From an uncultured Bdellovibrionales bacterium (GTDB taxonomy: Bacteria > Patescibacteriota > Minisyncoccia > Moranbacterales > UBA2206), in assembly GCA_964538685.1 (NCBI GenBank), contig CAZIFD010000004.1:1-62270 (forward strand): a stretch of 62,270 nt of DNA, in the 5' to 3' direction. Every line of letters starts with the position of its first letter. The stretch's first letter is position 1. Shown piece after piece: positions 372 to 57,961 of this stretch. The translations under genes and the position numbers were made by a program. The notes below the pieces were generated by a model. That model was not told the DNA's origin, did not search any database, and was given only the letters and a program-made list of their open reading frames with translations.

Positions 372-1973
372 ATGGACAAAGCAATACAACCGCAAAAATT
401 CTTTTTGTACGCCCGCAAGTCCACAGATGTGGAAGATAAACAAGTGAGGTCTATTGAAGATCAAGTCGCAGAATTGCGCGCCTATGCCAAACAAGAGGGG
501 TTAAATATTGTTGAAGTTTTTATCGAAAAGCAATCGGCCAAAATTCCAGGCAGGCCAATTTTTAACGAGATGTTGGATAGAATAGAGAAAGGTGAGGCAA
601 ACGGAATTTTGGCTTGGCACGCAGACAGATTGGCGCGCAATTCTGTGGACGGCGGGCGTATTATTTATCTTTTAGATACCGGAAAACTTGCGGCCCTGAA
701 GTTTCCAACTTTATGGTTTGAAAACACACCGCAAGGAAAATTTATGCTGAACATTATCTTTGGACAAAGCAAATACTATGTTGATTCGCTTGCCGAAAAT
801 ACAAAAAGAGGTTTACGCCAAAAAGTGAAACGCGGTGAATATCCGGGAGTTGCGCCTATTGGCTACATAAACGATGTTCGTACCAAATCAATCATCTTGG
901 ACAAAAAGAAAGCTCCAATTATTCGCCGCGCTTTTGAACTTTATTCACAGGGTGATAAACGGCTCGAAGATATCGCCGACTTTTTGGCACAAAACGGAAT
1001 CTTATCTTCCGGCGGCAAGCGAATCAAACGAGACAGAATTTCTTTTATCCTTTCAAATCCTTTTTACATCGGGTTGTTTAGATATGCCGGTGAAATTTAC
1101 GAAGGCAAACATCAGCCAATAGTCTCAAAGAAAACTTTTGATAAGGTGCAGGAAGTTTTGAAGCAAAGAGGACGACCGCGCCACAAAACCAAAAATCAAC
1201 CACAGCCATTTTGCGGTCTTTTGCGTTGCGGAACTTGCGGCATGATGATAACCGGCGAATACAGAATAAAAAGGCAGAAAAACGGCAATGTCCACGAATA
1301 TGTTTATTACCACTGCACCAAAAAGCGAAAAGATTTCAAATGCCCCGAGCCCTGTATCCGCCAAGAAGAATTAGATCGTCAGTTATCCTCTCTGCTTCAA
1401 AAATTTTCTTTGCCACCGGATTGGGCGGCGGAGATGAGAAAGATGTTGGAGAAAGACAAAGTGGAAGCCGCCCAATCCGCAACCGCTTTTGTTCAAGAAA
1501 CGCGGGAGAAAATCCGCACTATTCAAACGAAGCTCCAGCGACTTCTTGATGGCTATCTTGAACAAGACATTGAACGTGAAGTATATCTCACTGAAAAAGC
1601 CAAACTCCTTTCCGAAAAGAAGTCGCTGGAGGAGCAATCTTTCAATCTTGAACAAAAGCGGACTGGCTGGCTCGAACCGATGGCAGAATGGATAAAAGAG
1701 GCAGAAAACCTGCCTAAAATCGCACAAGAGAGCAACCTTTTTGCGAAAAAGGTTGCTTGCCGAACTTTGTTCGGCTCGAACCTCGTTTTGGCCAACCGCG
1801 AGGCGCGCGTCAGCGCGCCGAGCGGCAAGGATTCCCCGCACAAAAACCAATGGGCGGCACTGCGTGCCGCCCACGAATTGGCTCTCAAAAAGCCGTTTTG
1901 TTTTGTAGTGGTGCGCCCACCAGGACTCGAACCTGGGACCGTTTGCTTAAAAGGCAACTGCTCTACCAACTGA
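372..1973 (+). CDS. Large serine recombinase (resolvase + recombinase + Zn-ribbon + coiled coil), LSR-1
   Basis: YARKS catalytic Ser motif, DRLARN, CGTCG...YYHC zinc ribbon; last 19 codons are antisense tRNA-Lys (RPPGLEPGT...). Confidence 0.95.
   Translation: MDKAIQPQKFFLYARKSTDVEDKQVRSIEDQVAELRAYAKQEGLNIVEVFIEKQSAKIPGRPIFNEMLDRIEKGEANGILAWHADRLARNSVDGGRIIYLLDTGKLAALKFPTLWFENTPQGKFMLNIIFGQSKYYVDSLAENTKRGLRQKVKRGEYPGVAPIGYINDVRTKSIILDKKKAPIIRRAFELYSQGDKRLEDIADFLAQNGILSSGGKRIKRDRISFILSNPFYIGLFRYAGEIYEGKHQPIVSKKTFDKVQEVLKQRGRPRHKTKNQPQPFCGLLRCGTCGMMITGEYRIKRQKNGNVHEYVYYHCTKKRKDFKCPEPCIRQEELDRQLSSLLQKFSLPPDWAAEMRKMLEKDKVEAAQSATAFVQETREKIRTIQTKLQRLLDGYLEQDIEREVYLTEKAKLLSEKKSLEEQSFNLEQKRTGWLEPMAEWIKEAENLPKIAQESNLFAKKVACRTLFGSNLVLANREARVSAPSGKDSPHKNQWAALRAAHELALKKPFCFVVVRPPGLEPGTVCLKGNCSTN
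1777..1913 (+). repeat. Right arm of 137 bp inverted repeat, inside 3' end of LSR-1, ending at attL-like tRNA junction
   Basis: Exact reverse complement of 51-187; contains hairpins ggcgcgc-gtca-gcgcgcc and gggcggcac-tgc-gtgccgccc. Confidence 0.97.
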
Positions 1974-1984
1974 GCTATAGGCGC
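1909..1984 (-). tRNA. tRNA-Lys(TTT), with encoded CCA
   Basis: rc = GCGCCTA TA GCTC AGTTGGTA GAGC A GTTGC CTTTTAA GCAAA CGGTC CCAGG TTCGAGT CCTGG TGGGCGC A CCA; 76 nt cloverleaf. Confidence 0.96.
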
Positions 1985-26993: not shown

Positions 26994-28811
26994 TTATCTA
27001 TCAAGACTTTTACCCTTGAATTTCTTCGGACCAATGTACTGAATCTGGGAAAGACTGATTGGCTTTTCCTTGGAAACAAAAGTTTGAGAAATTATTTGTT
27101 GATTTTCTTTATTTTCAATTTTTGTTGCTTTGTTTGAGTTCTGTTTTTCTTGCTTTTTTTCTTCTTGAATTTGTTTCTTTTTTTCTTGAAGCCGTTGATA
27201 ATCCTTAAGACACTCCCTACAAAAGGCCGGTTTTTTTGGATCAGGCTTAAAAGGAACCCAGATTTCTTCTTCGCAAGTATCGCAAACAGCAAAATAAAGA
27301 GTTCTGCCATTATCATCAATTTTGGTTTTTGATTCTTGTTGACCCGAAGCAACAACTTCATTTTCAGAAATGTTTGGCGTGTTTTCTGCCAACTTTTTTT
27401 TCTCTTGAATTGATTCTGGTTGTTTATTTTTAGAAACAAAAATTTTCTTTGCCGGTTTTGAAAGATCCTTGTTTGGCAATTGGACTGATTCTGAAAAAGA
27501 TTCGCTTTTTCCTTCTCTGAAGACTTCTATCCCGCTCCAGCGAGAAATTTTTTCTTCTACGCTTTCTCTGGATTTTCCATATCTCTCCCGAGAGCTGTTT
27601 ATTACTTTTTCTTCATTCTCCATCGTATCCGTTAAATCAGCCGGCGGAAGTGTAGTGGCTGAAAAAGCATCGCCGGCTATTCCATCTATCATTAGCTTCA
27701 AGTAAATGTGATATTTTTCCAGATTGACAATGTCGTTCATTAGAAACACCGGGTCAAATTCCTTTTCCAAATGTTCCGCATCTTCCGCTCCCACCCGAAA
27801 AGAAACCATTGTTCCAACATTACCAAAAACCGCATCTCTAACCGTAGTATTGCCGTCAAAAACCAATTGATTAATGTACTGATGAGCTAAGATCAAATTG
27901 AGACGATATTTTCTGGCTTCTGATAAAATATTAGCAAAAGATTCCGTGGCAAAATTTTGAAATTCATCCACATATAAATAAAAATCGCTTCTGTCTTTTT
28001 CTTCCATTTCCACTCTTCCCATAGCCGCCAACTGAATTTTAGTAATTATCATTCCACCCAAAAGCCTCATTGAATCTTCTCCGATTTTTCCTTTGGACAA
28101 ATTGACAATCAATATTTTTTGATTATCCATAATGTCTCGCATATCAATAGTTGACTTGGGTTGCCCGACAATATGGCGAATAACGGAAGAAGATAGGAAT
28201 TGACCCACTTTGTTTTGAATAGCCGCTACTGCTTCTTTTCTAAAGCGGTCTTCCCATTGATCAAATTCATTAATCCAAAAAGATTTAACCACTGGATCTT
28301 TAATTTTTCCATAGACTCTTTTTCTGAAATCCTTGTCAAACATCATCCGATTCACTCCCAGCATAGTTGATCCGGGATAATCCAAAAGAGCCAAAATCGT
28401 ATTGTTAAGAATATACTCCATTCTAGCGCTCCAAACATCCGGCCAAATCTTTTTAAACACTCCCATCATCCCTGATGCCACTAAGTTCTTTTTATCCTCC
28501 GCCACCGATTCTAAAATATTAAAAGCTATCGGAAATTCACTGTCAGCCGGATTAAAATAAATTACATCATTAATACGATTGCTCGGAACCGCTCTCAACA
28601 TTTTTTCCGCAAATTCTCCATGAGGATCAACCACACAAACCCCTTCGCCATTTCTGATGTCCTGTATGGCCATATTTTCCAACATATTGGATTTTCCCAT
28701 TCCGGTCTTTCCGATCATATACATATGTCTCCGACGATCATCCCGTTTGATTCCGAAAATCCGCTCCTGATTTCTGAAATTGGTTTTAGCAAAAAAATTT
28801 ATATCGTTCAT
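26994..28811 (-). CDS. VirB4/TraG/HerA-like P-loop ATPase with C-terminal CxxC-x17-CxxC domain
   Basis: Walker A GKTGMGKS, VVDPHGE, Walker B YVDEFQ, RKY, CDTC...CREC. Confidence 0.85.
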   Translation of the reverse strand: MNDINFFAKTNFRNQERIFGIKRDDRRRHMYMIGKTGMGKSNMLENMAIQDIRNGEGVCVVDPHGEFAEKMLRAVPSNRINDVIYFNPADSEFPIAFNILESVAEDKKNLVASGMMGVFKKIWPDVWSARMEYILNNTILALLDYPGSTMLGVNRMMFDKDFRKRVYGKIKDPVVKSFWINEFDQWEDRFRKEAVAAIQNKVGQFLSSSVIRHIVGQPKSTIDMRDIMDNQKILIVNLSKGKIGEDSMRLLGGMIITKIQLAAMGRVEMEEKDRSDFYLYVDEFQNFATESFANILSEARKYRLNLILAHQYINQLVFDGNTTVRDAVFGNVGTMVSFRVGAEDAEHLEKEFDPVFLMNDIVNLEKYHIYLKLMIDGIAGDAFSATTLPPADLTDTMENEEKVINSSRERYGKSRESVEEKISRWSGIEVFREGKSESFSESVQLPNKDLSKPAKKIFVSKNKQPESIQEKKKLAENTPNISENEVVASGQQESKTKIDDNGRTLYFAVCDTCEEEIWVPFKPDPKKPAFCRECLKDYQRLQEKKKQIQEEKKQEKQNSNKATKIENKENQQIISQTFVSKEKPISLSQIQYIGPKKFKGKSLDR

Positions 28812-46811: not shown

Positions 46812-47480
46812 TTATTTCATCCAGCCTTCACATTTGAGACTCAAATAACTGTGAGATGAAACAATTACATGATCCACTATTTCAATTCCCATTATTTTTC
46901 CCGCCTCTTGCAGTCTGTTGGTAATTTCAATGTCCTCATCTGATGGTTCAGTCGCACCGGACGGATGATTGTGAGCTAAAAGAATTTGCGCGGCGCAATT
47001 GCGCACTGCCGATTCAAAAACTTCTCTTGGATGAACCAAGCTGGCATTTAGCGTTCCAATGGAAATTATTTCTTTCTGAATTTCCTGATTTCTAGCATCT
47101 AAATAAAAAACTATAAAATGTTCTCGCTTGCTTGCACGAATTTCTTTGAGATTTTCCCAAACATCCTTGGGAGACAAGATAATATCAGTTTTTTTATCTT
47201 TCAAAAATCTTTTTCCGAGTTCAAAACAAGCAATTATTTCTGAAGCTTTGGCTTTTCCAAGACCATCAATTTTTTCCAAATCGGAAAAAGAAGCTTCCAA
47301 AATTTTATTACCGGGAAATGTGCGAAGAATTTTTCTGGATAATTCCAAAACTCCCAATCCTCTAATTCCGTTTTGAAGAATAACCGCCAAAAGTTCGGTA
47401 TCGGTTAGTTTTTCCGGACCGTATTTTTCTAATTTTTCCCGAGGACGATCTGATTTGAAAAGAGTTTTTATTTTATTCAT
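46812..47480 (-). CDS. radC: RadC/JAB-domain protein
   Basis: PREKL, HhH GLGKAKA, VHPREVF, AHNHPSG, DHVI. Confidence 0.95.
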   Translation of the reverse strand: MNKIKTLFKSDRPREKLEKYGPEKLTDTELLAVILQNGIRGLGVLELSRKILRTFPGNKILEASFSDLEKIDGLGKAKASEIIACFELGKRFLKDKKTDIILSPKDVWENLKEIRASKREHFIVFYLDARNQEIQKEIISIGTLNASLVHPREVFESAVRNCAAQILLAHNHPSGATEPSDEDIEITNRLQEAGKIMGIEIVDHVIVSSHSYLSLKCEGWMK

Positions 47481-47609
47481 TTTTTTAGAACAATTATTAT
47501 TTTGTACCTAAAAATGTTTTTCTGGTGTTATTCTAACATTAATCTTATTTTTCGTCAAAAAAATAGTCCCGAGAGACTATTTTTTAAAAATGCTAGAATA
47601 TTTTATTTT

Positions 47610-48074
47610 TTAGGGAGTATATTTAGCACATCCGGATTTGCCAGTAAAATTAAATTCAGAATAACCCAAATTCCACCAAGTGGAAGCATCTATATTCTGA
47701 CCACAAATTATATAAGTTTCTAATTGTGAACTATAGATAGAAAAAAACCACCTATCTAAATCTATATTACTGCCTATTCCACCTGGCATATAAATAAAAC
47801 TAGTATCAACAATGTCTGGATAATTTTCACTGCCCAAACAAACTTCCGTCCCACCCGCACCAGAAGCGGCTGGATCAATCAGATCTTTTCCATCCATAAC
47901 ACAACTACTTGCCACCTTACTAAGCGACTGCATAGTTGAAAAAGCTTGAGCTATTTTAGCCTTTTTTCTGGCATTGGAAAGCGACACTAAAACTGTCGCC
48001 GCCAAAATTCCAATAATAGCGATTACAATTAAAAGTTCAATTAAGGTAAATGCTTTGAGTTTATTTTTTTTCAT
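47610..48074 (-). CDS. Type IV pilin-like protein
   Basis: Class III signal KAFTLIELLIVIAIIGILA; Cys pairs; low GC. Confidence 0.9.
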   Translation of the reverse strand: MKKNKLKAFTLIELLIVIAIIGILAATVLVSLSNARKKAKIAQAFSTMQSLSKVASSCVMDGKDLIDPAASGAGGTEVCLGSENYPDIVDTSFIYMPGGIGSNIDLDRWFFSIYSSQLETYIICGQNIDASTWWNLGYSEFNFTGKSGCAKYTP

Positions 48075-48168
48075 TGATATTTTTTATTTTTCAAGCACCC
48101 TTAGTTTTATAGATTATATCACATTATTTTCTTTTTTACAAAAATTTGTATAAAATTCGCTCTAATTT

Positions 48169-48879
48169 TCATTTTTTTAAATACTTTTTTCTTTTATTTT
48201 CAGGAAATCTTTCAATTGCATAGCGAAGCATTGTCCGAGGCATTTGCTGATAATATTTATCCAAAAAATTTTCCTCAGTTTTTTCGTTGCATTTTTTTCC
48301 CACCTCCCGAAGCATCCAACCGCAAGCTTTGTGAATCAAATCTTCTTTGTCTTCCAACAACAATGCGATCAATTCAAAAGTATCTTTATATTCTCCGTTT
48401 TTTATGAATTCAAAAGTTGAAATAATGGCGATTCTCCTCTCCCAAATATTTTTCGATCGGGCTAATTTATATAAAATTTTTCTGTCTTTTTTTAATAAAA
48501 AACTTCCTAAAATATTGGGAGCCGATAAATCAACCAAGTCCCAATTGTTAATTTGCTTGATATTTTTAAGATAAAGTTGGCAAATTTTTTTCTTTTCTTT
48601 TTCACTCCCATTTTCAAATTTTTTAACTAAAATTAAAAGCGCAATCAAACGCTCTTCGTGATAACTGCTTTCCAAAAGACTAGCAATCTCCGTCAAGGAC
48701 AGCTTTTCAAAATATTTCCCAACCAGTTGCCTCTGAAGTGGAACCGTTATTCCTAAAAATTTATCCCCCTCACCATATTCCCCTTTTCCCGTCTTGAAAA
48801 ATCTGGAAAGAATCTTGGCCTTTTCAGGATTCTTGAGATTTTTAATTTCTCTGACTATTTCTTTAAAATTCTCTTCCAT
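48169..48879 (-). CDS. DNA alkylation repair protein (AlkD-like HEAT repeats)
   Basis: FFKTGKGEYGEGDKFLG, NNWDLVD, WERR, HKACGWMLRE, RTMLRYAIE; start reassigned to MEENFK. Confidence 0.9.
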   Translation of the reverse strand: MEENFKEIVREIKNLKNPEKAKILSRFFKTGKGEYGEGDKFLGITVPLQRQLVGKYFEKLSLTEIASLLESSYHEERLIALLILVKKFENGSEKEKKKICQLYLKNIKQINNWDLVDLSAPNILGSFLLKKDRKILYKLARSKNIWERRIAIISTFEFIKNGEYKDTFELIALLLEDKEDLIHKACGWMLREVGKKCNEKTEENFLDKYYQQMPRTMLRYAIERFPENKRKKYLKK

Positions 48880-48918
48880 ACTAACAATTTCATTAAAAAA
48901 CCTGCCTGATAGAAAAGT

Positions 48919-49019
48919 GTCGCATTTACTGAACGAAGCTCGAACCTTTTTTGAGCAACAAATTCTGCCGTGAACGGCAGAAACCCGCCCAGCGTCTCCG
49001 CCCGCCGATACTCGGCGAG
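48919..49019 (+). repeat. attR-like junction plus L segment; diverged inverted copy at 60296-60387
   Basis: Shared ctgaacgaagctcgaac and tccgcccgccga-a/tactcggcgag. Confidence 0.85.
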
Positions 49020-49102
49020 CAAAGCAAAACAATTTTCTTTCAATTTTTTATCGCCCGCCCGCCAAATTTTTCTTAAAAGGAATTGAAAATTGTTTTGCTT
49101 TG
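49020..49102 (+). repeat. 83 bp unit U (18 bp terminal inverted arms), copy 1
   Basis: caaagcaaaacaattttc-47 nt-gaaaattgttttgctttg; copies at 54903-54985 (identical, minus) and 60213-60295 (3 substitutions, minus). Confidence 0.95.
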
Positions 49103-49246
49103 ACGTCTTGATACCAAGACGGCGGAAACGCTTCGCTACGCCAATTTTATTTTTCGGGCGGGGCGGAAAAAAAGGGGGGGTCTGGGGGGAATTCCGCCCC
49201 GCCCTCTCTTTTCCGCTTTCACTTTTTTCGCTGGCGCTGGAGGCCG
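49020..49246 (+). repeat. Left arm of perfect 227 bp inverted repeat bounding cassette 1 (partner 54759-54985)
   Basis: Exact reverse complement, including homopolymer lengths A7, G7, G6. Confidence 0.95.
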
Positions 49247-49270
49247 TGCCAACTTCATTGGCGCGCCACC

Positions 49271-50086
49271 TTATAATTTTTTTATTGTTTCCGATCCGTT
49301 GGTAGAAATTATTACTGGAGCGACGCCTTTTGTTCCAATAACATATGTTGCCACATTTACTATTTCTCCCTTTTTAGCAAATTGAGCCATTGCTCCGGTC
49401 GTCATCACTACTTTCGGAGGCATGGGGACTGCATAAGTATCAGCGACACCACCCTTTGAAGAATTGTAAACCGAAACCGATTGATATTTCTCAACGCTAG
49501 CTTTGGTCATTATATTGCCTGGCAATTCAGCACTTCCCTGCAGACAATCAGGATGTGTTTTGTTAATTTTTAATCCTAAAATCAGTGACGAAATAAAAAG
49601 GCGTTTTATCTCTTTACGATCTCTTGCTAAAGTTTCGGAATCTTTAACATCCCTTATTTTTTTATTTCCGTATTCGATATCCAACCTGCTCTCAATTAAA
49701 TTATCCTTATTCTTGTCAGGGTCAAACCCTAAATCAAAAATCGGAAATTTGTTTTGTTTGTATAATGCAACTTCCTTTTCATTAAGTAACGTTCTTGTTA
49801 TTAAACACGTTAAATCTCCTTTTTCCAAAAATTTGGATAAACTTCCTCTTGCTTCAACCTTTCTATTATCTTCCCCTTCAATTACAAATGTCTTTATCCT
49901 GTTTATCCAATTATTACCGTTAATTTTTGTTACTATTACTTGTTCCCATGGCAAAATATCGCTTTTTCTTAAAATGCCTTTTGGAATTACCAAGCCCTCG
50001 GCAATTTCGTCCTGTTTAAAAGTATTCCTGCAATTGGTGATAACAAGGTTGTGGATAGCGCTTCTTTTGAAAATTATTTCTTTCAT
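49271..50086 (-). CDS. Tandem double PanD-like (pyruvoyl decarboxylase fold) protein
   Basis: Domain 1 RSAIH...DILPWEQV...NRIKTFVI...GD; domain 2 QGSAELP...DTYAV...GAMAQ...GE, with the Gly-Ser cleavage motif only in domain 2. Confidence 0.75.
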   Translation of the reverse strand: MKEIIFKRSAIHNLVITNCRNTFKQDEIAEGLVIPKGILRKSDILPWEQVIVTKINGNNWINRIKTFVIEGEDNRKVEARGSLSKFLEKGDLTCLITRTLLNEKEVALYKQNKFPIFDLGFDPDKNKDNLIESRLDIEYGNKKIRDVKDSETLARDRKEIKRLFISSLILGLKINKTHPDCLQGSAELPGNIMTKASVEKYQSVSVYNSSKGGVADTYAVPMPPKVVMTTGAMAQFAKKGEIVNVATYVIGTKGVAPVIISTNGSETIKKL

Positions 50087-50186
50087 AAAATTCAGCATTA
50101 CCTTATCACATTGCGCAATATAAGTAATTTTTAAAAATTAAATCCTATGCAATTATAATACGTCTTTTTCTATAAAAAATCAATGA

Positions 50187-50676
50187 AAACCACTAGCTTA
50201 TACGCTAGTGGTTTCTATCCTGCCGTCTAACGACGGCTAGAACAACTTGAGGTTTTCCATATCTACCTGTCGGTTGCTTTGGTTTTGAATATACTTACGG
50301 ATGGCAAATTCATTGATGCCAATGGTAGAAACAAAGTAGCCCCGTGCCCAGAGACTGCCTTTGGGGAATTTTTTAGGCGGTATGACAAGATACAAGTGTA
50401 TATGCTCGTCGCCAATGTGCCATTCGAGAATTTTAATCCCCTTCCATTTGGCAATGAACTTGAATATTCTCTTAAGTTCTAGTTTAATGTAAGTATCTGC
50501 CATTACCTTGCCTCGGTATCTGGGAGTCCAAACTACATGATACTGACAACAGTAAGTGCAGTGCTCTAGTTTATAGAGTTTGGTCAACATAAAATCACCT
50601 CCTTGCTAGTGGGTGATTTTATTATATTCCAAGAGCTAACGCTCTAAACGCACACACCGGCTGACGCCGGTGGTTT
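50187..50676 (-). mobile_element. IS200/IS605-family element, transposase-only, internally deleted
   Basis: tnpA ORF flanked by hairpins aaaccactagc-ttatac-gctagtggttt (50187-50214) and accggc-tgac-gccggt (50656-50671); exact ends uncertain. Confidence 0.7.
50237..50590 (-). pseudogene. tnpA: IS200-type Y1 transposase TnpA with in-frame internal deletion
   Basis: YHVVWTPRYR, HUH motif EHIHL, LWARGYFVSTIG, KYIQNQ; segment normally between IPPK and FP is missing. Confidence 0.8.
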
Positions 50677-50691
50677 ATCTGGTTAAAAAAA

Positions 50692-50723
50692 AGGAGCGGC
50701 TCTCTTTTAAGATTACCGCTCCT
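50692..50723 (-). terminator. Hairpin after radical SAM genes
   Basis: aggagcgg-16 nt-ccgctcct followed on the minus strand by a T-run. Confidence 0.6.
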
Positions 50724-50727
50724 GAAT

Positions 50728-52260
50728 TTAGAGTCTGCGCGTTACAGACCTTCCCAAGCGCTCATTGATGGATTTCACCTTGCGGTGCATTTCATCAAGT
50801 AACGCATTCGGGTATGGCCATACCCCCGTCTTCCGAGAGAATAAACAATGCTCGAACGGCGCAGTCGGGTAGAGCTGCCGCCACGAACGCCGATATTCTC
50901 GCGTGACAGGAGAGAGGGTCAGAAAGATCGCTTGGTGCAAGAATTGCTGCTCAAGACACTCTGTGATGAATCGGAAAGTTTCTTCCAATTCGCACGGCCT
51001 TTCGGCAGGCTGTCCATTTGTTTCGGGAAAACCGCCTATGAAAAAGCCCTCACGATTGGTCGTTTGCAGATTCTCCTTGGCAAACTCGAGAACTTTCCGC
51101 ACCACAGACAAGGTATGCGGCTTTCTTATCATGCGAAGTACTCTGTCGTTTCCGTTCTCGCATGGAAACGCGATGTGCCGTACATTGCCGTTCTGACTGA
51201 ATTGCCGGAGCAACCGGAAGTTTTCCCTAGTCATTGACTCGAAAGTAAGGCCGTTGGAAAATCCGATCTGGTACCCCGCGCTGGCTACTTGAGAAAGAAT
51301 CTCAAAAGCCAAGTCGCGAGAGGAGTTGTTTCCGCCGCCGAAATTGTTGTCCATAAAGTCAATGTAGTTGATGCCGAAAAGGCAATCAAACTCATTGATG
51401 ATTTCCATGGTGTTCTCGACAGCGTACCTTACGAGCCGCTTATCTGTGTCGCAAAAACTGCAGTCAAAACCGCAACCGTACGACGTCAGAAGTGGCAGGT
51501 AGGCAACAGGCCCCTGAATGCCAAGGATGGTACCGATTCGTCCGGCGTGAGGATTACCGACAAAGGAGTAAAGATCCAATGCTTTTTCCCTCCCAACAAC
51601 TTCCACTCGCGGAAGCAAGTTGTAGTCGGGAATTGCGAAATGATCGGGTTGAAACTCGGACAGACCGGAAAATTCAACACGACCATTGAATCTGCGAGCC
51701 ACTCCTTGCGGCAAGTTACCCATAGCTGGTTCGTCAAAACAGCGTAGTAGAGAAGTTATCACCGGCTGACCCGGGCCAACAACGACATAGTCAATTGCCG
51801 GAATTTCTCCGATAGGAAACGGAGTATTGCCGAGGATTTCTTCGTACCACTGCGAAGCTTCATGTCCGCCCAGAATAATGGGCGTTGCAGGAAATGCTTC
51901 CTTCAGGGCCTTAGTTGTTTTTGCCACTTCGCCTCGATCAACTACCGTGCAACAGCTCATGCCGATCACATCCGGCTCACGCTTGACCACTTCGTCTACG
52001 ATCTCCTCGATCCGCAGTCCAGTTTTCCAGTAAGGAATCCCGTCAAGTTCCTCAATCGCTACCGGATTATAGGAAGAATCAAGGATACCTTTTTTTAAAC
52101 CCTCGGCCGCCGCGTCAAAGAGAAATGCTTCGTAGCCATTTCTTTTGGCTTCCGCCAAAACAGAAATGGCTCCCAATGGCGGGTGAATGCGGGGCGGAGT
52201 TCCAGCTGGAGAGACTGCGCGAGGTGTTACAATGACAAACCTCTCTATCTTTCGTTTCAT
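50728..52260 (-). CDS. B12-binding-domain radical SAM enzyme
   Basis: PPLG, PDVIGMSC, IILGGHEAS, CGFDCSFC, DNNF, CENG, FFIGGFP. Confidence 0.9.
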   Translation of the reverse strand: MKRKIERFVIVTPRAVSPAGTPPRIHPPLGAISVLAEAKRNGYEAFLFDAAAEGLKKGILDSSYNPVAIEELDGIPYWKTGLRIEEIVDEVVKREPDVIGMSCCTVVDRGEVAKTTKALKEAFPATPIILGGHEASQWYEEILGNTPFPIGEIPAIDYVVVGPGQPVITSLLRCFDEPAMGNLPQGVARRFNGRVEFSGLSEFQPDHFAIPDYNLLPRVEVVGREKALDLYSFVGNPHAGRIGTILGIQGPVAYLPLLTSYGCGFDCSFCDTDKRLVRYAVENTMEIINEFDCLFGINYIDFMDNNFGGGNNSSRDLAFEILSQVASAGYQIGFSNGLTFESMTRENFRLLRQFSQNGNVRHIAFPCENGNDRVLRMIRKPHTLSVVRKVLEFAKENLQTTNREGFFIGGFPETNGQPAERPCELEETFRFITECLEQQFLHQAIFLTLSPVTREYRRSWRQLYPTAPFEHCLFSRKTGVWPYPNALLDEMHRKVKSINERLGRSVTRRL

Positions 52261-52312
52261 GATTTTACCTCCTTTTCAGAAAAAGAGGCGGCAAGAAATG
52301 AATCCCGCCGCC

Positions 52313-53566
52313 TCAGGTGGTTGAACTACCGCTTTTCCGCATTGTCTCATAGAGGCAGTTGGGATCCTGCTGATCGTAGTTGCCCCAGAAGTAGAAGCGA
52401 TTAGCTGGACATTCGTTTTTACAGAGACGATTGCAGCTATCGCATTCGCGGGGTTGACGAATCGCCCGAACGGTTTGGAATTTATTCCCGACTTTTCCTT
52501 GCCAAAAATCTCTGATGGTTCCATCTTGGTAGATTTTCCCAAAAGAGAAGGTTGGCCCGAAGAAAACGCAGGGACTTATCTTGCCGTTGGCGTCAATGTG
52601 CATGGAACGGTTAGCCGCTCCGCACATTCGTCCGCGCAAGAGTTTCTGCAACACCCCAGCTGGCTGGCTGAACATCATGCCTTCGTCCATCAGCACATAC
52701 GGTAGCACTTTTGGGCTATTAAGGTATTCCAGTACCTTGAGATAACGCGGGGAGTCTTGAGGGCTTAGCATTGTTTGATTATGCACAGCCCTGCCGGCCG
52801 GCCTGCAGTAGGAGAATTTGATTTTTACTCCTCTGCTTCTAGCCAGTTCTACTAACTCCGGCACATTATCCAAGTTTTGTGGTAACAGCGTAGTCCGCAA
52901 AAGTACATTGACGCCGCCTTCCTTGAGTGTTTCAAGAGCGGCGAGTGCTTTCCGGAAATGACCAGAACCACGCAAGCTGTCATTGACCGCTTCCATGCCC
53001 TCAATACTTACCGAGGTGCGAATTTTGGCATTAGCAAGCAAGTCAACTGTTTGCGGGGTTACTACTGCACTGTTCGTGCTGATTGTGAGAAAACATCCGG
53101 CTGAACGGAGCAGGTTAATGATGATTTCAAAATCAGGATGAAGAAAAGGATCGCCACCGCCGATTTTGACGTACATAACACCCAGCTTCTGAATTTCCGC
53201 CGCAAGTTTCTTAATTGTCGCCACGGGCAAAGATGTTTTTAGGCCTCGTCCCGCTTCCGACAAACAGAAAGGACATTGGAGCGAACACGCCAGCGTGATG
53301 TCGAGGTAAATCTTGAACGGAGCCGAATAGGCGTTTAGGACTGGCGAATTGTGAACAATCCGAACTGCCTTGTCACTTAATTTCTGCCCGACAAACTGTC
53401 CGATAAGATCGGGCTGTGCCGAATCGAAGGGAATCCACTGCGGAGATTGCAAAGTATGAACTTTCAACACTCCGCTATTGGAATCAAACTCCACCAGTTT
53501 ATCGACTTCCTCCTCTCGTAAAGAGGAAAAGCCGAAGCTGGTGTTTTCCAGCCTTATGATCTTCAT
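52313..53566 (-). CDS. Radical SAM enzyme with SPASM domain
   Basis: CSLQCPFC, GGDPF, STN, CGAA...ISPC, CDSC-x3-C-x3-C. Confidence 0.92.
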   Translation of the reverse strand: MKIIRLENTSFGFSSLREEEVDKLVEFDSNSGVLKVHTLQSPQWIPFDSAQPDLIGQFVGQKLSDKAVRIVHNSPVLNAYSAPFKIYLDITLACSLQCPFCLSEAGRGLKTSLPVATIKKLAAEIQKLGVMYVKIGGGDPFLHPDFEIIINLLRSAGCFLTISTNSAVVTPQTVDLLANAKIRTSVSIEGMEAVNDSLRGSGHFRKALAALETLKEGGVNVLLRTTLLPQNLDNVPELVELARSRGVKIKFSYCRPAGRAVHNQTMLSPQDSPRYLKVLEYLNSPKVLPYVLMDEGMMFSQPAGVLQKLLRGRMCGAANRSMHIDANGKISPCVFFGPTFSFGKIYQDGTIRDFWQGKVGNKFQTVRAIRQPRECDSCNRLCKNECPANRFYFWGNYDQQDPNCLYETMRKSGSSTT

Positions 53567-53581
53567 GGCTTTTCCTCCTTT

Positions 53582-54232
53582 TCAGTCGAGAATTCGGGAA
53601 GTCAGTATGTCTGCTTTCAGGCAACGGGCGGCGGCGATGGCCGTACCAATCGGCTTGAGAATTCCGTCATCGGGCAGATCAATCCTTGATGTGATTTTTC
53701 CGCCTGCTTTTTGGAATTCTTTGACTGACATTGGCTTTTCCGCTATCTGCAAAAGCAATTCTGCTTCCAGCTCAATGAGAGCAGGGTCGTCGATCGGCCT
53801 AATCTCGCCAGAGGTAAATCTTCCAGCATAGATCAGGACATTAGTGAACGGTTTGCGGCCGGCTTCGGCGCGCGGACTGCGAAAGATAATGATAGGCAGA
53901 GGCTCATTCGTCAGATCGGTAGCAAGATATATTTTTTCAATGGACTCCGAGTCCATCAAAATTGTCTCATCGCCGTGATGATCCGCGATGTCCACGTCTG
54001 ACCCAACTTCCTCAATCGCTTCCCGATGCAACGAAGCACCTGGCAATTCGTTCGGTTCCAGTTTTCCACCAATCCCGCCAAAAGGCAGGATTGAAATACC
54101 CTCTTCGGTCTTACCCCAACGGTGGGGTTGCTTTAAAGTAAAGCAGAAACCGAAGCCGCGGGTTGCTAGCAAACCAGTCCCCAGATCCGCTTCGGGATCC
54201 TGAAGAAACTGTTCCAGTTTATGCTCATTCAT
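53582..54232 (-). CDS. NUDIX hydrolase
   Basis: Perfect Nudix box GKLEPNELPGASLHREAIEEVG; start reassigned to MNEHK with AGAGGA RBS. Confidence 0.9.
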   Translation of the reverse strand: MNEHKLEQFLQDPEADLGTGLLATRGFGFCFTLKQPHRWGKTEEGISILPFGGIGGKLEPNELPGASLHREAIEEVGSDVDIADHHGDETILMDSESIEKIYLATDLTNEPLPIIIFRSPRAEAGRKPFTNVLIYAGRFTSGEIRPIDDPALIELEAELLLQIAEKPMSVKEFQKAGGKITSRIDLPDDGILKPIGTAIAAARCLKADILTSRILD

Positions 54233-54365
54233 TTCTGTATCCTCTTTAGGTTTTTGGTTGTCAATGTGCTCACCAGAACGCTCTAGCTTGACGTTGTATT
54301 TTATAGCAAAAAGGCGTATTTTGTCAAGGATATTGTGTATTTTAGAGATAAATGGATTCATAAGC

Positions 54366-54575
54366 TTATTTGAGCAAAATATCAACAGAAACACCTAATG
54401 CTTTGGCAATTCTTTGAACAGTATCAATAGTCGGGCTTTGTATTCCGCCCGATTCAATTTTAATAATTGTGGCATGAGCCACATCTGCCAATCTTGCAAG
54501 TTTGTCTTGCGATAAACCTTTTTCCTTGCGGTATTTCTTTATGTTTTTTGCAATAGTTGGAATTATTTTTGACAT
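54366..54575 (-). CDS. XRE-family HTH regulator (cassette 1)
   Basis: NIKKYRKEKGLSQDKLA...IIKIESG...PTIDTVQRIAKALGV. Confidence 0.93.
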   Translation of the reverse strand: MSKIIPTIAKNIKKYRKEKGLSQDKLARLADVAHATIIKIESGGIQSPTIDTVQRIAKALGVSVDILLK

Positions 54576-54588
54576 TGTGATATGTTAA

Positions 54589-54610
54589 TATCTATACTAT
54601 AATATAGATA
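54589..54610. promoter_or_regulatory. Palindromic operator candidate upstream of XRE-1
   Basis: tatctata-ctataa-tatagata; half-site atatctata repeated near 54624-54632. Confidence 0.5.
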
Positions 54611-54758
54611 GTAATTTATCTTTCAGTAAATATCTATATTATTATGATACACAATTTTTATTTATTAGTAAATGGGAGTTCTTTGTCGTTGCCCGCGCAC
54701 GGGTGGGTTGGAGCAAGGGCAACATCCTTTTCGGCGGCGCATTTCGCTTTGCGAAATG

Positions 54759-54985
54759 CGGCCTCCAGCGCCAGCGAAAAAAGTGAAAGCGGAAAAGAGA
54801 GGGCGGGGCGGAATTCCCCCCAGACCCCCCCTTTTTTTCCGCCCCGCCCGAAAAATAAAATTGGCGTAGCGAAGCGTTTCCGCCGTCTTGGTATCAAGAC
54901 GTCAAAGCAAAACAATTTTCAATTCCTTTTAAGAAAAATTTGGCGGGCGGGCGATAAAAAATTGAAAGAAAATTGTTTTGCTTTG
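54759..54985 (-). repeat. Right arm of 227 bp inverted repeat of cassette 1 (includes U copy 2 at 54903-54985)
   Basis: Reverse complement of 49020-49246. Confidence 0.95.
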
Positions 54986-55118
54986 ATGTTTGGCTTAACG
55001 CCAAACGGCGGAAACGCTTCGCTTCGGCTCGGGCGTGGCGGAATTCCTCCCCCCAACCCCCTCCTTCCGCCACGCCCTCGCTCGGACTGCTCTTTTTTTC
55101 GGCGGAATTGGAGGCCGT
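54968..55118 (+). repeat. Left arm of perfect 151 bp inverted repeat bounding cassette 2 (partner 60080-60230)
   Basis: Exact reverse complement; diverged homolog of the cassette-1 arm. Confidence 0.95.
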
Positions 55119-55141
55119 GCCAATTTCATTGGCGCGCCGCC

Positions 55142-57961
55142 TCATTTCTGAATTAAATACTCCTCAAGTTTCTCAAGAATATTATCAACAGTCAATTGGT
55201 CTTTTGGCGAACAACCGACAATATGATCAATGTATTTATCTTTTTTCAATTCAGTCAAAATGTTCGCACTCTGATTTCCTTTGCCGGAATGGTGATAAAT
55301 TTGACCTGTGATAATTACATTGTATTTTGTTTGCCCTTTTTTCAATCCACCCAAGACATCGCTATTCCTGATTTTGGAATTGCCAAAAAACGCAACATCC
55401 CAATCAGTCGCTTTCAATCCGTATTTTGCGAAAAAACCTCTCAATTTTTCTCTGATTAAATCCTCGCCAACAACTTCGCCCAAAATACAAATATTGAACG
55501 GAGACGGAATTTTGATATTTTCGGCTTCTTCTTTCGCGCCAGCTTTCGGTTGAAATGCCAGAGCTTCTTTCAAACCGCCGATTGTCGCTTGCGCGTTTTG
55601 CAAATCAAGTTTCAAAATTTCATTTTCAAGTTTTTTGTCGTCGAGATTTTTAATAGCCTTTGTCAGCTCGCCCTCGTATAATTCAAGCAATTCCTGATCT
55701 TCTTTTGACTTTTCCGCCTGTTTTTCGGAAACAATTTTACGACTTTGGGTATATCTAACTAAATTTTCTTCAAATTGAGGTTTGAAACTTGCTAAATCTT
55801 GATTTTTTAGAGCGACAAAAAACTTGTAGTAATCAGACGGCGAAATAATGTAAAAATAAAAATTTTCTTTGCCTTTGTATTCTTTTTGATATTTTTTCCC
55901 TGCGTTTAATTTGAGCAAGTTTTCATTTTTGAAGTCTCGGTCATCTTTAATTTCAACAACAAGGGTGTCTTTTTTCGTTTTTATTACAAAATCAGGATAA
56001 AAAGCGTAATAACTGCCGTGGCTATTGCCGTTTTTCTTGTAGGCAATTCCAAAATACTTGCTTTCTGAAACGCCATTTTTAAACCACCACAAAACATCGT
56101 TGTCGGTCTTTTCCAGTTCATCAATAAATACTTTTTCGGGCTTGGACCATTGCTGTTTTCCGTTTTTATCTCGTTTTACAAAGTAAGGTTTCAAAACCGA
56201 TTTTTTGATAGTTTTGATTTCATCAAAATTTTCAAAAACGCTTATTATATCCGGCACTTGCCAATTTTCATTGGGGATAACTTCGTCTGCTTTTTCAGGC
56301 AACGATTTATATTTACCTTTTGCTGTTTCAATAAGTTCTATAAATTCACCTTTATTGACTGGATTCAAAACAATCGTTGCGATTTCGTCCTCGTTATCAA
56401 TTCCAAACGCTTTTTTGAAAAACGAACGCAAGCTTGATTTGATAATTTCAGTCGGGCGACCACCGCCAGTAAACGGAAAAGTTAGAGATTTTATAAATGC
56501 CGTGTATTCGGCGCAAACTTCCTCGCGGTCTCTTACAATTGCGCCTTTCTTTTGAAAATCAACGGCTTGCTTTTTATCAATTTCGGAAATTTGCCCCTCA
56601 AAACCAATATCTTTTTTGAAAACTATTTTGCCGATGTTGATTTTCTTTTCTTTGAATTTCAATTCATCGCCAGCTTGAAACAAACAATCCTTAAATTCAC
56701 CCGACAATCTAAATAATTCTCTTTTTCTTCTGATATGTTCGCTTGGCAGATAAATATCTTTATAAATCGTATTGTCGCGCACCATTTGATCTTTGCTGAC
56801 ATAATCCTTTGCTAAATCTTCAACAATTTCAAAATTATCAGAAGCCGTATAAACATAGCCGATATTCAAAGCGGGATAATTTTCGTAATGCTTTTGCTCT
56901 GGCATACGCATAATACGGCCAAGCGTTTGGATATTGAAAACATAATTTTCGGCGTTCCATTCCCGTTGAAGCAGTAAAATGCTGGCGCGTGGGCAATCCC
57001 AACCTTGTGCAATAGCTTCTTTGAATACTAAAACATCAACTCCGCTATCGTGATTTTCAAGGTAATCAAGATTTTTCTTTTTATCTTTTTCGGCAAGCCA
57101 AAGAGCAAGTTTTCCATTTTCAATCGTTATGCCGTCTTTGTTCAAAATTTCAATGATTTTGTCTTCCGGCTCTCTAATATCCGATTTCTTTTTCTTTGGT
57201 ATTTGGATTAAAAGCAAAGGATTTATATCGGTCTTGGCTTCTTCGTAAAGCCGTTTTAATTCCTTTCGTTTTTTCAACGCTTCACGAACAATGTCCTCGT
57301 TTGTCTGCACTCGGCCAAGTCCAGGATTTATCTGTATCCCTTCCTTAATCATTCCCTCGGCCACAACTTCGCTTAATTTGACGGTTATTTTGTGGTCATT
57401 GGTTACGCCCTCTTTTGGCGTGGCCGAAACTTCAATCGTCGATTTTGGGCTAATCATGTTGACGATTTCTTGCGACTTGCTTGTTTTTGCCGTTCTGTGG
57501 CTTTCGTCAATTATCAAAACAATGTTTCTGCCCTCGTCTCTCGTATTTTCGGCAACTTTGCTTAAATTCCAATCCTTTTCATTGTCGGACATAAAAAGCG
57601 AAATACCCTCTTTATTCAAAGAATCCCAGTTCACAAAAACAATCTGGTTTTGCTCAATTATATTGTTTTGAATTTCGTTAATTCCAATGCAATCAAGCAG
57701 TCGCTCATTTTCAAAATGCTTTTCCAGTTTTTCTTTTCTTTGTTCGTTTAGTGCGTTTACTGAAATCCAAACAAAAGCTAATTCCTTTTGACCGCCAAGC
57801 TCTTTTACTATTCGCGACATTGCTTCGGCAAGCATAATTGTTTTACCTGCGCCAGTTGGAGCTTGAAAAACAATCAATTTTGGGTCTTCATCTTCAATAT
57901 ACCCAACGGAAGTTGAGACAAGTTCTTTGATGTATTTTTTTTGATATGCTAAATCTTTCAT
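55142..57961 (-). CDS. Type III restriction enzyme Res subunit with C-terminal extension
   Basis: QAPTGAGKT, IIDESH, SATP, EAIAQGWD, QTLGRIMR, PD...VEIK nuclease; 4 nt overlap with mod. Confidence 0.9.
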   Translation of the reverse strand: MKDLAYQKKYIKELVSTSVGYIEDEDPKLIVFQAPTGAGKTIMLAEAMSRIVKELGGQKELAFVWISVNALNEQRKEKLEKHFENERLLDCIGINEIQNNIIEQNQIVFVNWDSLNKEGISLFMSDNEKDWNLSKVAENTRDEGRNIVLIIDESHRTAKTSKSQEIVNMISPKSTIEVSATPKEGVTNDHKITVKLSEVVAEGMIKEGIQINPGLGRVQTNEDIVREALKKRKELKRLYEEAKTDINPLLLIQIPKKKKSDIREPEDKIIEILNKDGITIENGKLALWLAEKDKKKNLDYLENHDSGVDVLVFKEAIAQGWDCPRASILLLQREWNAENYVFNIQTLGRIMRMPEQKHYENYPALNIGYVYTASDNFEIVEDLAKDYVSKDQMVRDNTIYKDIYLPSEHIRRKRELFRLSGEFKDCLFQAGDELKFKEKKINIGKIVFKKDIGFEGQISEIDKKQAVDFQKKGAIVRDREEVCAEYTAFIKSLTFPFTGGGRPTEIIKSSLRSFFKKAFGIDNEDEIATIVLNPVNKGEFIELIETAKGKYKSLPEKADEVIPNENWQVPDIISVFENFDEIKTIKKSVLKPYFVKRDKNGKQQWSKPEKVFIDELEKTDNDVLWWFKNGVSESKYFGIAYKKNGNSHGSYYAFYPDFVIKTKKDTLVVEIKDDRDFKNENLLKLNAGKKYQKEYKGKENFYFYIISPSDYYKFFVALKNQDLASFKPQFEENLVRYTQSRKIVSEKQAEKSKEDQELLELYEGELTKAIKNLDDKKLENEILKLDLQNAQATIGGLKEALAFQPKAGAKEEAENIKIPSPFNICILGEVVGEDLIREKLRGFFAKYGLKATDWDVAFFGNSKIRNSDVLGGLKKGQTKYNVIITGQIYHHSGKGNQSANILTELKKDKYIDHIVGCSPKDQLTVDNILEKLEEYLIQK

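Follow-up and report, generated by a model that had tools for sequence, protein, structure and literature searches.

The window analysed here is a 62,270-nucleotide (nt) stretch of DNA (contig CAZIFD010000004.1) from a patescibacterial genome, and all coordinates are positions in it. It carries a 13-kb island, 48919-62217, inserted into a tRNA-Pro gene at the CA of its CCA end. The feature under study, 49103-49270, makes up the inner two thirds of the terminal inverted repeat (O-X-arm-IL) on the left side of cassette 1 in this island. Read from left to right, the order is a DNA-alkylation-repair gene, O, X, arm A, cassette 1, A′, X′, B, cassette 2, B′, X′, O′, R′, the gene of a large serine recombinase (LSR), R and the 3′ end of tRNA-Pro on the minus strand. 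Three segments, cassette 1, cassette 2 and the LSR gene, are each bracketed by their own long inverted repeat. Here O denotes the outer terminus, X a hairpin, H1 and H3 the arm hairpins, hpL and hpR the small inner hairpins, IL and IRt the inner-left and inner-right ends of a cassette, and R/R′ the recombinase repeat; a prime marks an inverted copy, and arm types (A, B and C) are named by their H3 stem.

A contig from run X26, which contains a strain with the empty site and a backbone 95-99% identical to that of the window, joins position 48918 straight to 62218. The only sequence common to this empty site and to both island junctions is TG (CA in the tRNA sense, the CA of CCA), with no longer duplication of the target, and such a 2-bp junction at a specific site is the signature of a serine-recombinase crossover. 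The LSR of the island has the three defining domains of its class, the Resolvase catalytic domain, the Recombinase domain and the zinc ribbon, and counts more than 6000 relatives. The features of the island are as follows.

48919-49019, plus strand: O, left island boundary and outer terminus of the left inverted repeat; homologous O ends in more than 100 loci
49020-49103, plus strand: X hairpin, 17-bp A/T-rich stem AAAGCAAAACAATTTTC and 47-nt loop; other copies at 54899-54985 and 60209-60295
49104-49247, plus strand: arm A, with H1 (49105-49120), box GGCGGAAACGCTTCGCT, H3 (49156-49204), a T-rich tract and GGAGGCCG
49248-49270, plus strand: IL of cassette 1, hpL GCCAACTTCATTGGC plus 8-mer GCGCCACC; kept in 33 IL ends
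49271-54394, minus strand: cargo of cassette 1, comprising PanD-like, IS200-like Y1 transposase fragment, B12-binding radical SAM, SPASM radical SAM and NUDIX-like genes
54670-54758, plus strand: IRt of cassette 1, with the GTTGCCCGCGCACGGGTGGGTTGG..GCAAGGGCAAC hairpin, 8-mer GGCGGCGC (54733-54740) and hpR (54741-54757); kept in 43 IRt ends
54759-54985, minus strand: arm A′ (54759-54898) plus X′, right inverted repeat of cassette 1, 100% complementary to 49020-49246
54986-55141, plus strand: arm B plus IL of cassette 2, with H1, H3 (55031-55077), hpL (55119-55133) and 8-mer (55134-55141)
55142-59682, minus strand: cargo of cassette 2, Type III restriction-modification (R-M), res 55142-57961 and mod 57958-59682
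59996-60230, minus strand: IRt of cassette 2 (59996-60079), arm B′ (60080-60208) and the first 22 nt of X′ (60209-60230)
60209-60389, minus strand: X′ (60209-60295) plus O′ (60296-60389)
60384-60541, minus strand: R′, inverted copy of the 3′ region of the recombinase gene, begins CGACCA; same layout in about 25 loci
60695-62269, plus strand: LSR, 524 amino acids, N-terminal YARKST; PF00239 Resolvase, PF07508 Recombinase and PF13408 Zn_ribbon_recom, all above cut-off
62064-62221, plus strand: R, right arm of the 158-nt perfect repeat, ends TGGTCG and overlaps the tRNA end
62216-62270, minus strand: 3′ part of tRNA-Pro, read from sequence and cut by the window end; crossover at 62216-62217 (plus strand)

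Recurrence of the architecture and mimicry of tRNA ends

This architecture recurs across many genomes and metagenomes of the Candidate Phyla Radiation (CPR)/Patescibacteria, each time with different cargo. Our comparative set holds about 150 related loci, numbered L001 onward, and 157 X copies, among the matches listed. Exact X stems occur at 29 loci in GTDB genomes, mostly metagenome-assembled CPR/Patescibacteria genomes from many classes, and on at least 120 further metagenome contigs of the Joint Genome Institute. The recurrent layout is tRNA-Pro / R / LSR / R′ / O-X-arm-(IL or IRt) / cargo / arm′-X′-O′ / flank: LSRs 81-94% identical adjoin O ends in about 25 loci, and the distal R adjoins a tRNA-Pro gene, with anticodon CGG, GGG or TGG, in 12. 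The cargo ranges from Type II and III R-M systems over a P-type ATPase and Na/Ca exchangers to an ArsR/thiol-disulfide cluster (metal resistance), and across the mapped loci it encodes no transposase. Scans of viral contigs with the arm and X patterns returned no matches, and a phage or viral origin was rejected on this ground.

The outermost ~30 nt of O mimic the 3′ end of tRNA-Pro, with a GTTCGAGC box plus GCGA/CA; O′ ends in GGTTCGAGCTTCGTTCAGCAATTGCGAC-CA and tRNA-Pro in GGTTCAATTCCGGGCAGCCCGAC-CA. Sister LSR subfamilies show the same arrangement at tRNA-Ser and tRNA-Lys. Where a subfamily 44% identical to the island's LSR sits at tRNA-Ser, cassettes end in ...GTTCGGATTTTGTCCAAAAGGTACCGCCA, compared with ...GTTCGAATCTCTCCCCCTCCGCCA in the tRNA, and a second LSR of the window (45% identical), located at tRNA-Lys, is preceded by ...GTTCGAGCTTGGTTGTATAGATACACCA, compared with ...GTTCGAGTCCTGGTGGGCGCACCA. 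The final 5-6 nt are the tRNA's own in all three cases. The T-loop box GTTCRA lies 24 nt from the end of tRNA-Pro, tRNA-Ser and tRNA-Lys, and 29 (Pro, 22/22 loci), 29 (Ser) and 28 nt (Lys) from the end of the cognate O. Half-sites, tested on the left side, share a distal motif displaced by about 5 bp; in LI integrase the motif of the zinc-ribbon domain is shifted by 5 bp between attP and attB (PMC3783163). Because the last 5-6 nt are copied and the box is moved outward by 4-5 bp, the cassette tips look like attP-type half-sites, with the tRNA end as the putative attB half-site.

The second LSR belongs to another island end at 1-1984, and its island extends beyond the left edge of the window. 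Its gene (372-1973) is 45% identical in product to the LSR at 60695, is bracketed by a perfect 137-nt inverted repeat (51-187 with 1777-1913) and adjoins tRNA-Lys (1909-1984, minus strand), with a mimic of the tRNA-Lys 3′ end at 20-55.

In the tRNA-Pro island, three perfect inverted repeats were found: 49020-49246 with 54759-54985 (227 nt), 54968-55118 with 60080-60230 (151 nt) and, around the recombinase gene, 60384-60541 with 62064-62221 (158 nt). In the source run (X1, activated sludge), the 227-nt unitig has a depth of 27.6x compared with 14.6x in its flank, and the 158-nt unitig 21.2x compared with 9.2x. Separate unitigs of exactly the repeat length at about twice the flank depth mean that these are real two-copy sequences; with three repeat pairs in different flanks, an assembly artefact was rejected for the window. 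The IRt of cassette 1 is in addition a direct repeat with 59996-60104 (88%). Whole elements have inverted repeats of 295-516 nt. Identity within 33 repeat pairs ranges from 79 to 100%, with 11 pairs perfect, and repeats are therefore not regenerated perfectly in each generation. At two loci (L066, 1-516 and 5824-6339; L105, 1-435 and 7510-7944) the inverted repeat is symmetric to both contig ends and passes through unrelated flank, which in L066 includes an old tRNA-Pro fragment and an R remnant. Most likely the assembler left the repeat twice via the same flank; neither locus is used here as evidence on repeat length, and repeat lengths from short reads call for caution.

Single loci depart from the common layout. 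In L046 a cassette that lacks a recombinase lies directly at tRNA-Pro, and in L081 two cassettes meet in an O′-CA-O tandem junction. The X loop has a fixed orientation relative to O in 154 of 157 copies; two are flipped (L081 and L115) and one (L045) is a mis-call of the script. The junction between cassettes 1 and 2 of the window, A′-X′-B, in which arms lie on both sides of one X, is unique among the 157 X copies; a single deletion in a pair of tandem cassettes, from one 18-nt X stem to the identical stem of the other, explains it best. The IRt motif GTTGCCCGCGCACGGGTGGGTTGG.GCAAGGGCAAC (window 54690-54725 and 60012-60047) was also observed off any repeat, upstream of a serpin gene (L002, 523-605), and reaches a depth of ~2400 in run X15, far over that of the remaining arm; it may be a module in its own right, promoter-proximal or mobile.

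Cassette 1 has a GC content of ~0.49 compared with 0.35 in the backbone, and its last cargo open reading frame (ORF) ends at 49271, directly after IL. A 504-nt stretch (50184-50687) that contains the IS200-like ORF (50237-50590) is absent from copies of the cassette in two landfill runs (X2 and X25), which are otherwise 95-99% identical to the window; the fragment is therefore a secondary insertion into cassette 1. Since it is truncated and absent from the same cassette elsewhere, it was rejected as a mobilizing enzyme. The res/mod pair of cassette 2 has a relative in L134 (res 93%, mod 66% protein identity) that is inverted relative to the recombinase. In the source run, unitig depth is 9.2-11.8 over cassette 2 and the recombinase (55089-62093) and 14.3-14.6 over the backbone and cassette 1 (47000-54711). 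Part of the population may lack the cassette 2/recombinase module; no contig joining across its absence was seen in this run.

Hairpins of the arms and orientation of their loops

An earlier sequence-only reading had described the arms as hairpins related by compensatory changes, and the comparison bears this out. In the large hairpin H3, arm A has GGGCGGGGCGGAA...TTCCGCCCCGCCC (49156-49204, copy at 54801-54849) and arm B GGGCGTGGCGGAA...TTCCGCCACGCCC (55031-55077 and 60121-60167), the difference being an exchange of G:C for T:A at stem position 6. The first hairpins are unlike yet both pair, GTCTTG-ATAC-CAAGAC in A (49105-49120) and GTTTGGC-TTAAC-GCCAAAC in B. As had been noted, the H3 loop is reversed: in arm A it is 23 nt long and G-rich, aaaaagggggggtctggggggaa, the reverse complement type of the C-rich loop of arm B, ttcctccccccaaccccctcc. 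The perfect repeats stop at GGAGGCCG and give way to unlike small hairpins at precisely the positions reported, hpL (GCCAAyTTCATTGGC) on the left at 49248-49262 and 55119-55133, and hpR (ATTTCGCTTTGCGAAAT) on the right at 54741-54757 and 60063-60079. Beyond them, pairing over 8 nt resumes, between 55134-55141 and 60055-60062 and, with one mismatch, between 49263-49270 and 54733-54740. The arm motif was counted 4 times compared with 0.13 expected, and folding of the arms as single-stranded DNA gave z = -3.7 and -4.7, with 0/200 shuffles folding as well.

Over the about 150 loci, H1, H3 and hpL/hpR are kept by pairing. H1 occurs as three unrelated stems in the same place, GTCTTG/CAAGAC (65), GTTTGGC/GCCAAAC (63) and GTCCCGC/GCGGGAC (14), with 12 imperfect ones. 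H3 is 99.2% paired in A/B-type arms, where position 6 is U:A in 43, G:C in 3 and A:U in 1, and position 2 is G:C or A:U. Over B and C types together it is 96.5% paired, compared with 81% in shuffles and ~50% with slid partners; both sides change in 7/13 stem pairs, the loop is conserved, and the covariation score on these homologous arms was reached by 0/500 shuffles. Compensated variants are also found in hpL (T:A to C:G) and hpR (C:G to T:A). With three H1 stems and more than half of the H3 pairs changed on both sides, structure is conserved and sequence is free, as is typical of integron sites. Mismatches of the G.T (16) and A.C (11) kinds are about equally common, with no asymmetry that would point to RNA read from one strand. 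Some loci (L025 at ~213-244, L040, L088, L003 and L140) have additional perfect hairpins, placed in the H3 loop or in the stretch from H3 to the inner end; the arms change over time through inserted modules and through recombination inside loops. The H3 loop itself (49169-49191 and 55044-55064) consists of two G (or C) runs, each 5-7 nt long, with 2-3 nt between them; it is conserved across stem types and could form a G-quadruplex or i-motif on one strand.

The reversed loop had been taken as a sign of flip and flop isomers, and counting loop orientations across genomes turned this claim down, as orientation follows the lineage of the stem. A-type H3 stems (GGGCGGGGCGGAA) are G-rich in the X-to-arm direction in 11/11 cases, B-type loops are C-rich in 57/57, and the other stem types (about 50 arms) are C-rich except for L081. 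Within an element the isomers of the two ends agree in every case, and over the set the two orientations are not similarly frequent. Inversions of other hairpins are likewise rare and inherited (X in 2/157 copies; the hpR loop, AAA to TTT, in 3/43). The pattern is one of occasional hairpin inversion followed by descent, the outcome that the sequence-only reading had itself set against its claim.

A four-way junction at the base of the long stems, also proposed from the sequence, fared unevenly: it is geometrically possible, and the arrangement GGAGGCCG-N-[hpL or hpR]-GCGCCGCC is kept in 33 left and 43 right inner ends, but where the 8-mer varies at one end of an element, the other end shows no matching change. 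Mismatches occur in 4/11 end pairs, and in the minimum-energy fold of arm B the 8-mer pairs with GGAGGC of its own end. As a conserved pairing between ends, with no compensation and a competing local fold, the junction is doubtful.

A model for the cassettes and its alternatives

We consider it on balance probable that the locus is a tRNA-targeted LSR island made up of cassettes with attP-like tips and arms of hairpin modules. Conservative recombination by the LSR, with the CA dinucleotide as crossover, would move the island as a whole and probably also cassettes singly. At each cassette end, the outermost ~30 nt (O) would serve as an attP-type half-site whose box is set 4-5 bp farther out from the crossover than its counterpart in the tRNA; if both cassette ends present this half-site outward, terminal inverted repeats follow necessarily, and two ends joined as O′-CA-O would give a symmetric attP. 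The other 200-300 nt (X, H1, H3 and hpL/hpR) would be a mosaic of hairpin modules kept by pairing, which may act as extruded DNA hairpins or fold-backs (single-stranded or cruciform) and provide accessory architecture for cassette handling. Such a role at the level of DNA is the one we favour. Near-identity of the ends would result from concerted evolution between them and not from hairpin-transfer replication, and the inverted loop of arm A would be one old inversion inherited by the A lineage.

The recombinase module adds features of its own. Its ORF has no stop before 62269 and runs through the R arm into the tRNA-Pro gene. Homology to paralogous LSRs (compared with the second LSR of the window) stops near residue 466, at the start of R; the last ~55 residues are therefore probably an incidental tail that would change with the junction. 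R and R′ are 80-100% identical across loci (95.6% in two long contigs fetched via recombinase homologues), and the segment has a single orientation in about 25 loci, including those in which R and R′ are only 95% alike. On either side of the recombinase gene the junction has the order tRNA-like half-site, CA, R′, the two being inverted relative to each other. An origin of R′/R in a single standard integration of a circle with only the recombinase was rejected; the polarity of the core dinucleotide does not fit.

Several observations weigh against our model. No circular cassette junction was seen, and we infer the action of the LSR on the O and R ends. R′, the right half of the presumed attP, is without a T-loop-like box, and the junctions flanking the recombinase gene have the core dinucleotide in opposite polarity. 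The tRNA-proximal junction of L046 uses a CA 6 nt further inside O, with a spacing of 23. In short-read data, the assembler can affect both the orientation of cargo and the apparent perfection of repeats, as L066 and L105 illustrate. As to the hairpins, the covariation of H3 is largely one split between two clades (B and C types), and chimeric, non-pairing stems exist in L001, L111 and L140. Template switching can restore DNA palindromes mutationally, and covariation is thus no proof of function.

Alternative explanations share parts of this evidence. Rolling-hairpin replication as in parvoviruses, with terminal hairpins resolved by a nickase into flip and flop isomers, would account for the loop inverted between arms A and B, for the conserved hairpins and for the IS200-like HUH fragment in cassette 1. 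It is contradicted by loop orientations that are fixed by lineage (A-type 11/11 against over 110 of the others, exception L081), by ends that are of the same isomer in each element, and by repeat identities that fall to 79-90% in some elements; moreover, the hairpins lie internally, 85-185 nt inside a chromosomal repeat of 330 nt with no DNA terminus, and no Rep or nickase is encoded, the only HUH-like ORF being the truncated IS200 fragment that the 504-nt gap removes elsewhere. Hairpin transfer is close to refuted and retains scarcely any credibility. We also regard as improbable an integron-like scheme in which the arms, like attC, fold in single-stranded DNA and the folded form is the recombination substrate. 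Pairing rather than sequence is indeed kept in H1, H3, hpL and hpR, the cassettes have no promoter-independent mobility gene and are tightly bounded by their ends, and the mismatch symmetry fits a structure at the level of DNA. Yet the sole recombinase is a serine recombinase, an enzyme acting on duplex sites; the island has no IntI-type tyrosine recombinase and no R/L box pattern, its crossover is at the outer CA, 100-330 nt from the hairpins, and each cassette is bounded by two inverted ends instead of one palindromic site. A similarly low probability attaches to invertible segments of the shufflon or 2-micron style, with the repeats as substrates for inversions that switch the expression or orientation of cargo. 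Every segment is bracketed by near-perfect inverted repeats, inversion would also homogenize them, and both cargo orientations relative to the recombinase are found across loci (IRt-proximal in ~17, IL-proximal in ~6; compare L134 with the window), but short-read assemblies cannot resolve orientation between perfect repeats. The recombinase segment keeps one orientation even where R and R′ are 95% alike, contigs of the source run contain no opposite-strand joints, and a promoter-like A/T-rich region lies inside the cassette.

The hairpins might instead work in transcription or as RNA, as insulating terminators, RNA stabilizers or a small RNA, and be in the repeats incidentally. GC-rich 13-bp stems followed by T-rich tracts in the inward direction, the position of IRt upstream of most cargo operons, and arm words in metatranscriptomes (H3 depth up to ~350) speak for this, although those contigs are unstranded and the signal could be DNA carry-over. 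Rfam gave no match beyond chance hairpins: within the window only two tRNAs reach the gathering score, and low-scoring matches to miRNA precursors are generic hairpins. G.U is not in excess over A.C on either strand, in B and C types 16-20 nt separate the T-run from the stem, and a simple terminator scan, whose 3-8 nt loop limit excludes H3, found none in the arms. On this evidence an RNA-level function is unlikely. Very unlikely, in our view, is neutral palindromic DNA, in which nested palindromic insertions would be self-corrected by template switch and only the outer ~30 nt would be functional. Extra hairpins in the loops and spacers of L025, L040, L088 and L003, the tolerance of chimeric stems and single mismatches, and hairpin inversion as a known mutational class are consistent with it; however, CPR lineages differ hardly at all in the X stems, in box GGCGGAAACGCTTCGCT, in the H3 loop and in the inner ends, and the same holds between two LSR subfamilies only 44% identical, which is more conservation than neutral DNA should keep.

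A wider extension of our model is doubtful but merits statement. CPR bacteria would run a phylum-wide exchange of cassettes by serine recombinases, with hairpin-built repeats and tRNA-mimic attP tips, in which the arms work as DNA to present, protect or pair the ends (as cruciforms or as fold-backs of single strands acquired through competence). Capture would then be structure-dependent as in integrons, with the recombinase gene placed exactly between two att half-sites. To our knowledge, CPR bacteria are largely without classical conjugative elements.

The backbone around the island is that of an ordinary bacterial chromosome, with genes for DnaK, CysRS, AlaRS, a Mur ligase and a PBP. Positions 1-48000 have a strongly negative GC skew (-0.2 to -0.35), with nearly all genes on the minus strand; inside the island this skew breaks down. 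A backbone ORF at 26994-28811 has TrwB/TraG-type coupling-protein and HerA-like domains plus a zinc finger, and may bear on DNA movement between these cells.

Relation to known systems

Gene exchange in CPR/Patescibacteria is poorly understood, and the family described here is very common, carries defence and transport genes and obeys a simple grammar of tRNA end, CA crossover and mimic half-site with a 5-bp shift. If our model is true, it provides natural attB/attP pairs for three tRNA targets and a handle to follow the flow of cassettes in uncultured bacteria. In the hairpin arms, nature also provides a clean case in which selection for DNA structure can be told apart from palindromes that correct themselves by mutation. 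In the parts of the literature covered by our search we found no description of this architecture, and the consulted portions of a recent survey of genomic islands in CPR/Patescibacteria do not mention recombinases, tRNA targets or repeats (PMC12455944).

With the inverted terminal repeats of parvoviruses and adeno-associated virus, the arms share a hairpin whose asymmetric loop exists in two orientations. Here, in contrast, the orientations are fixed by lineage, the hairpin is not terminal, and there is neither a Rep nickase nor a single-stranded linear genome; the structural observation of the sequence-only reading is right and its mechanistic analogy wrong. Integron attC sites resemble the arms in that cassette boundaries are imperfect palindromes kept for structure over sequence. 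They differ in the reaction: IntI, a tyrosine recombinase, acts on the folded bottom strand, with one attC per cassette and a crossover within the folded site, and the island shows none of these. Closer are the attP/attB sites of serine integrases (LI/A118, phiC31, Bxb1), with their 2-bp crossover and a distal motif shifted by 5 bp, although known att sites span 40-50 bp, whereas the putative site here is the tip of a 330-nt repeat and its R′ half is without the motif.

In the staphylococcal cassette chromosome (SCC, including SCCmec), Ccr LSRs insert cargo cassettes at the 3′ end of one conserved gene, where they stack in tandem; some cassettes are without a recombinase, R-M systems are typical cargo, and inverted repeats lie at the element ends. 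The island is alike in its LSR, its insertion at a gene end, its stacked and partly recombinase-less units, its R-M cargo and its inverted-repeat ends. It differs in its target, the 3′ end of a tRNA gene and not rlmH, in its CPR hosts, in near-perfect repeats of 150-500 nt with conserved hairpins, and in a recombinase gene with its own inverted repeat. Tycheposons of Prochlorococcus, as far as the consulted part of their description goes, are cargo elements at tRNA genes of streamlined genomes, with successive integrations and partial-tRNA remnants, and 27/937 use a large serine recombinase (bioRxiv 10.1101/2020.12.28.424599). Like the cassettes, they insert site-specifically at a conserved gene end and comprise stacked cargo units, some without a recombinase; in contrast, they are flanked by direct partial-tRNA repeats, many have replication genes, and long structured inverted repeats or a repeat-bracketed recombinase are not described in that part. 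Judged by sequence, the distinction from both SCC and tycheposons is the combination of structured inverted repeats, apparent tRNA-mimic tips with attP-like spacing and a recombinase gene bracketed by its own repeat.

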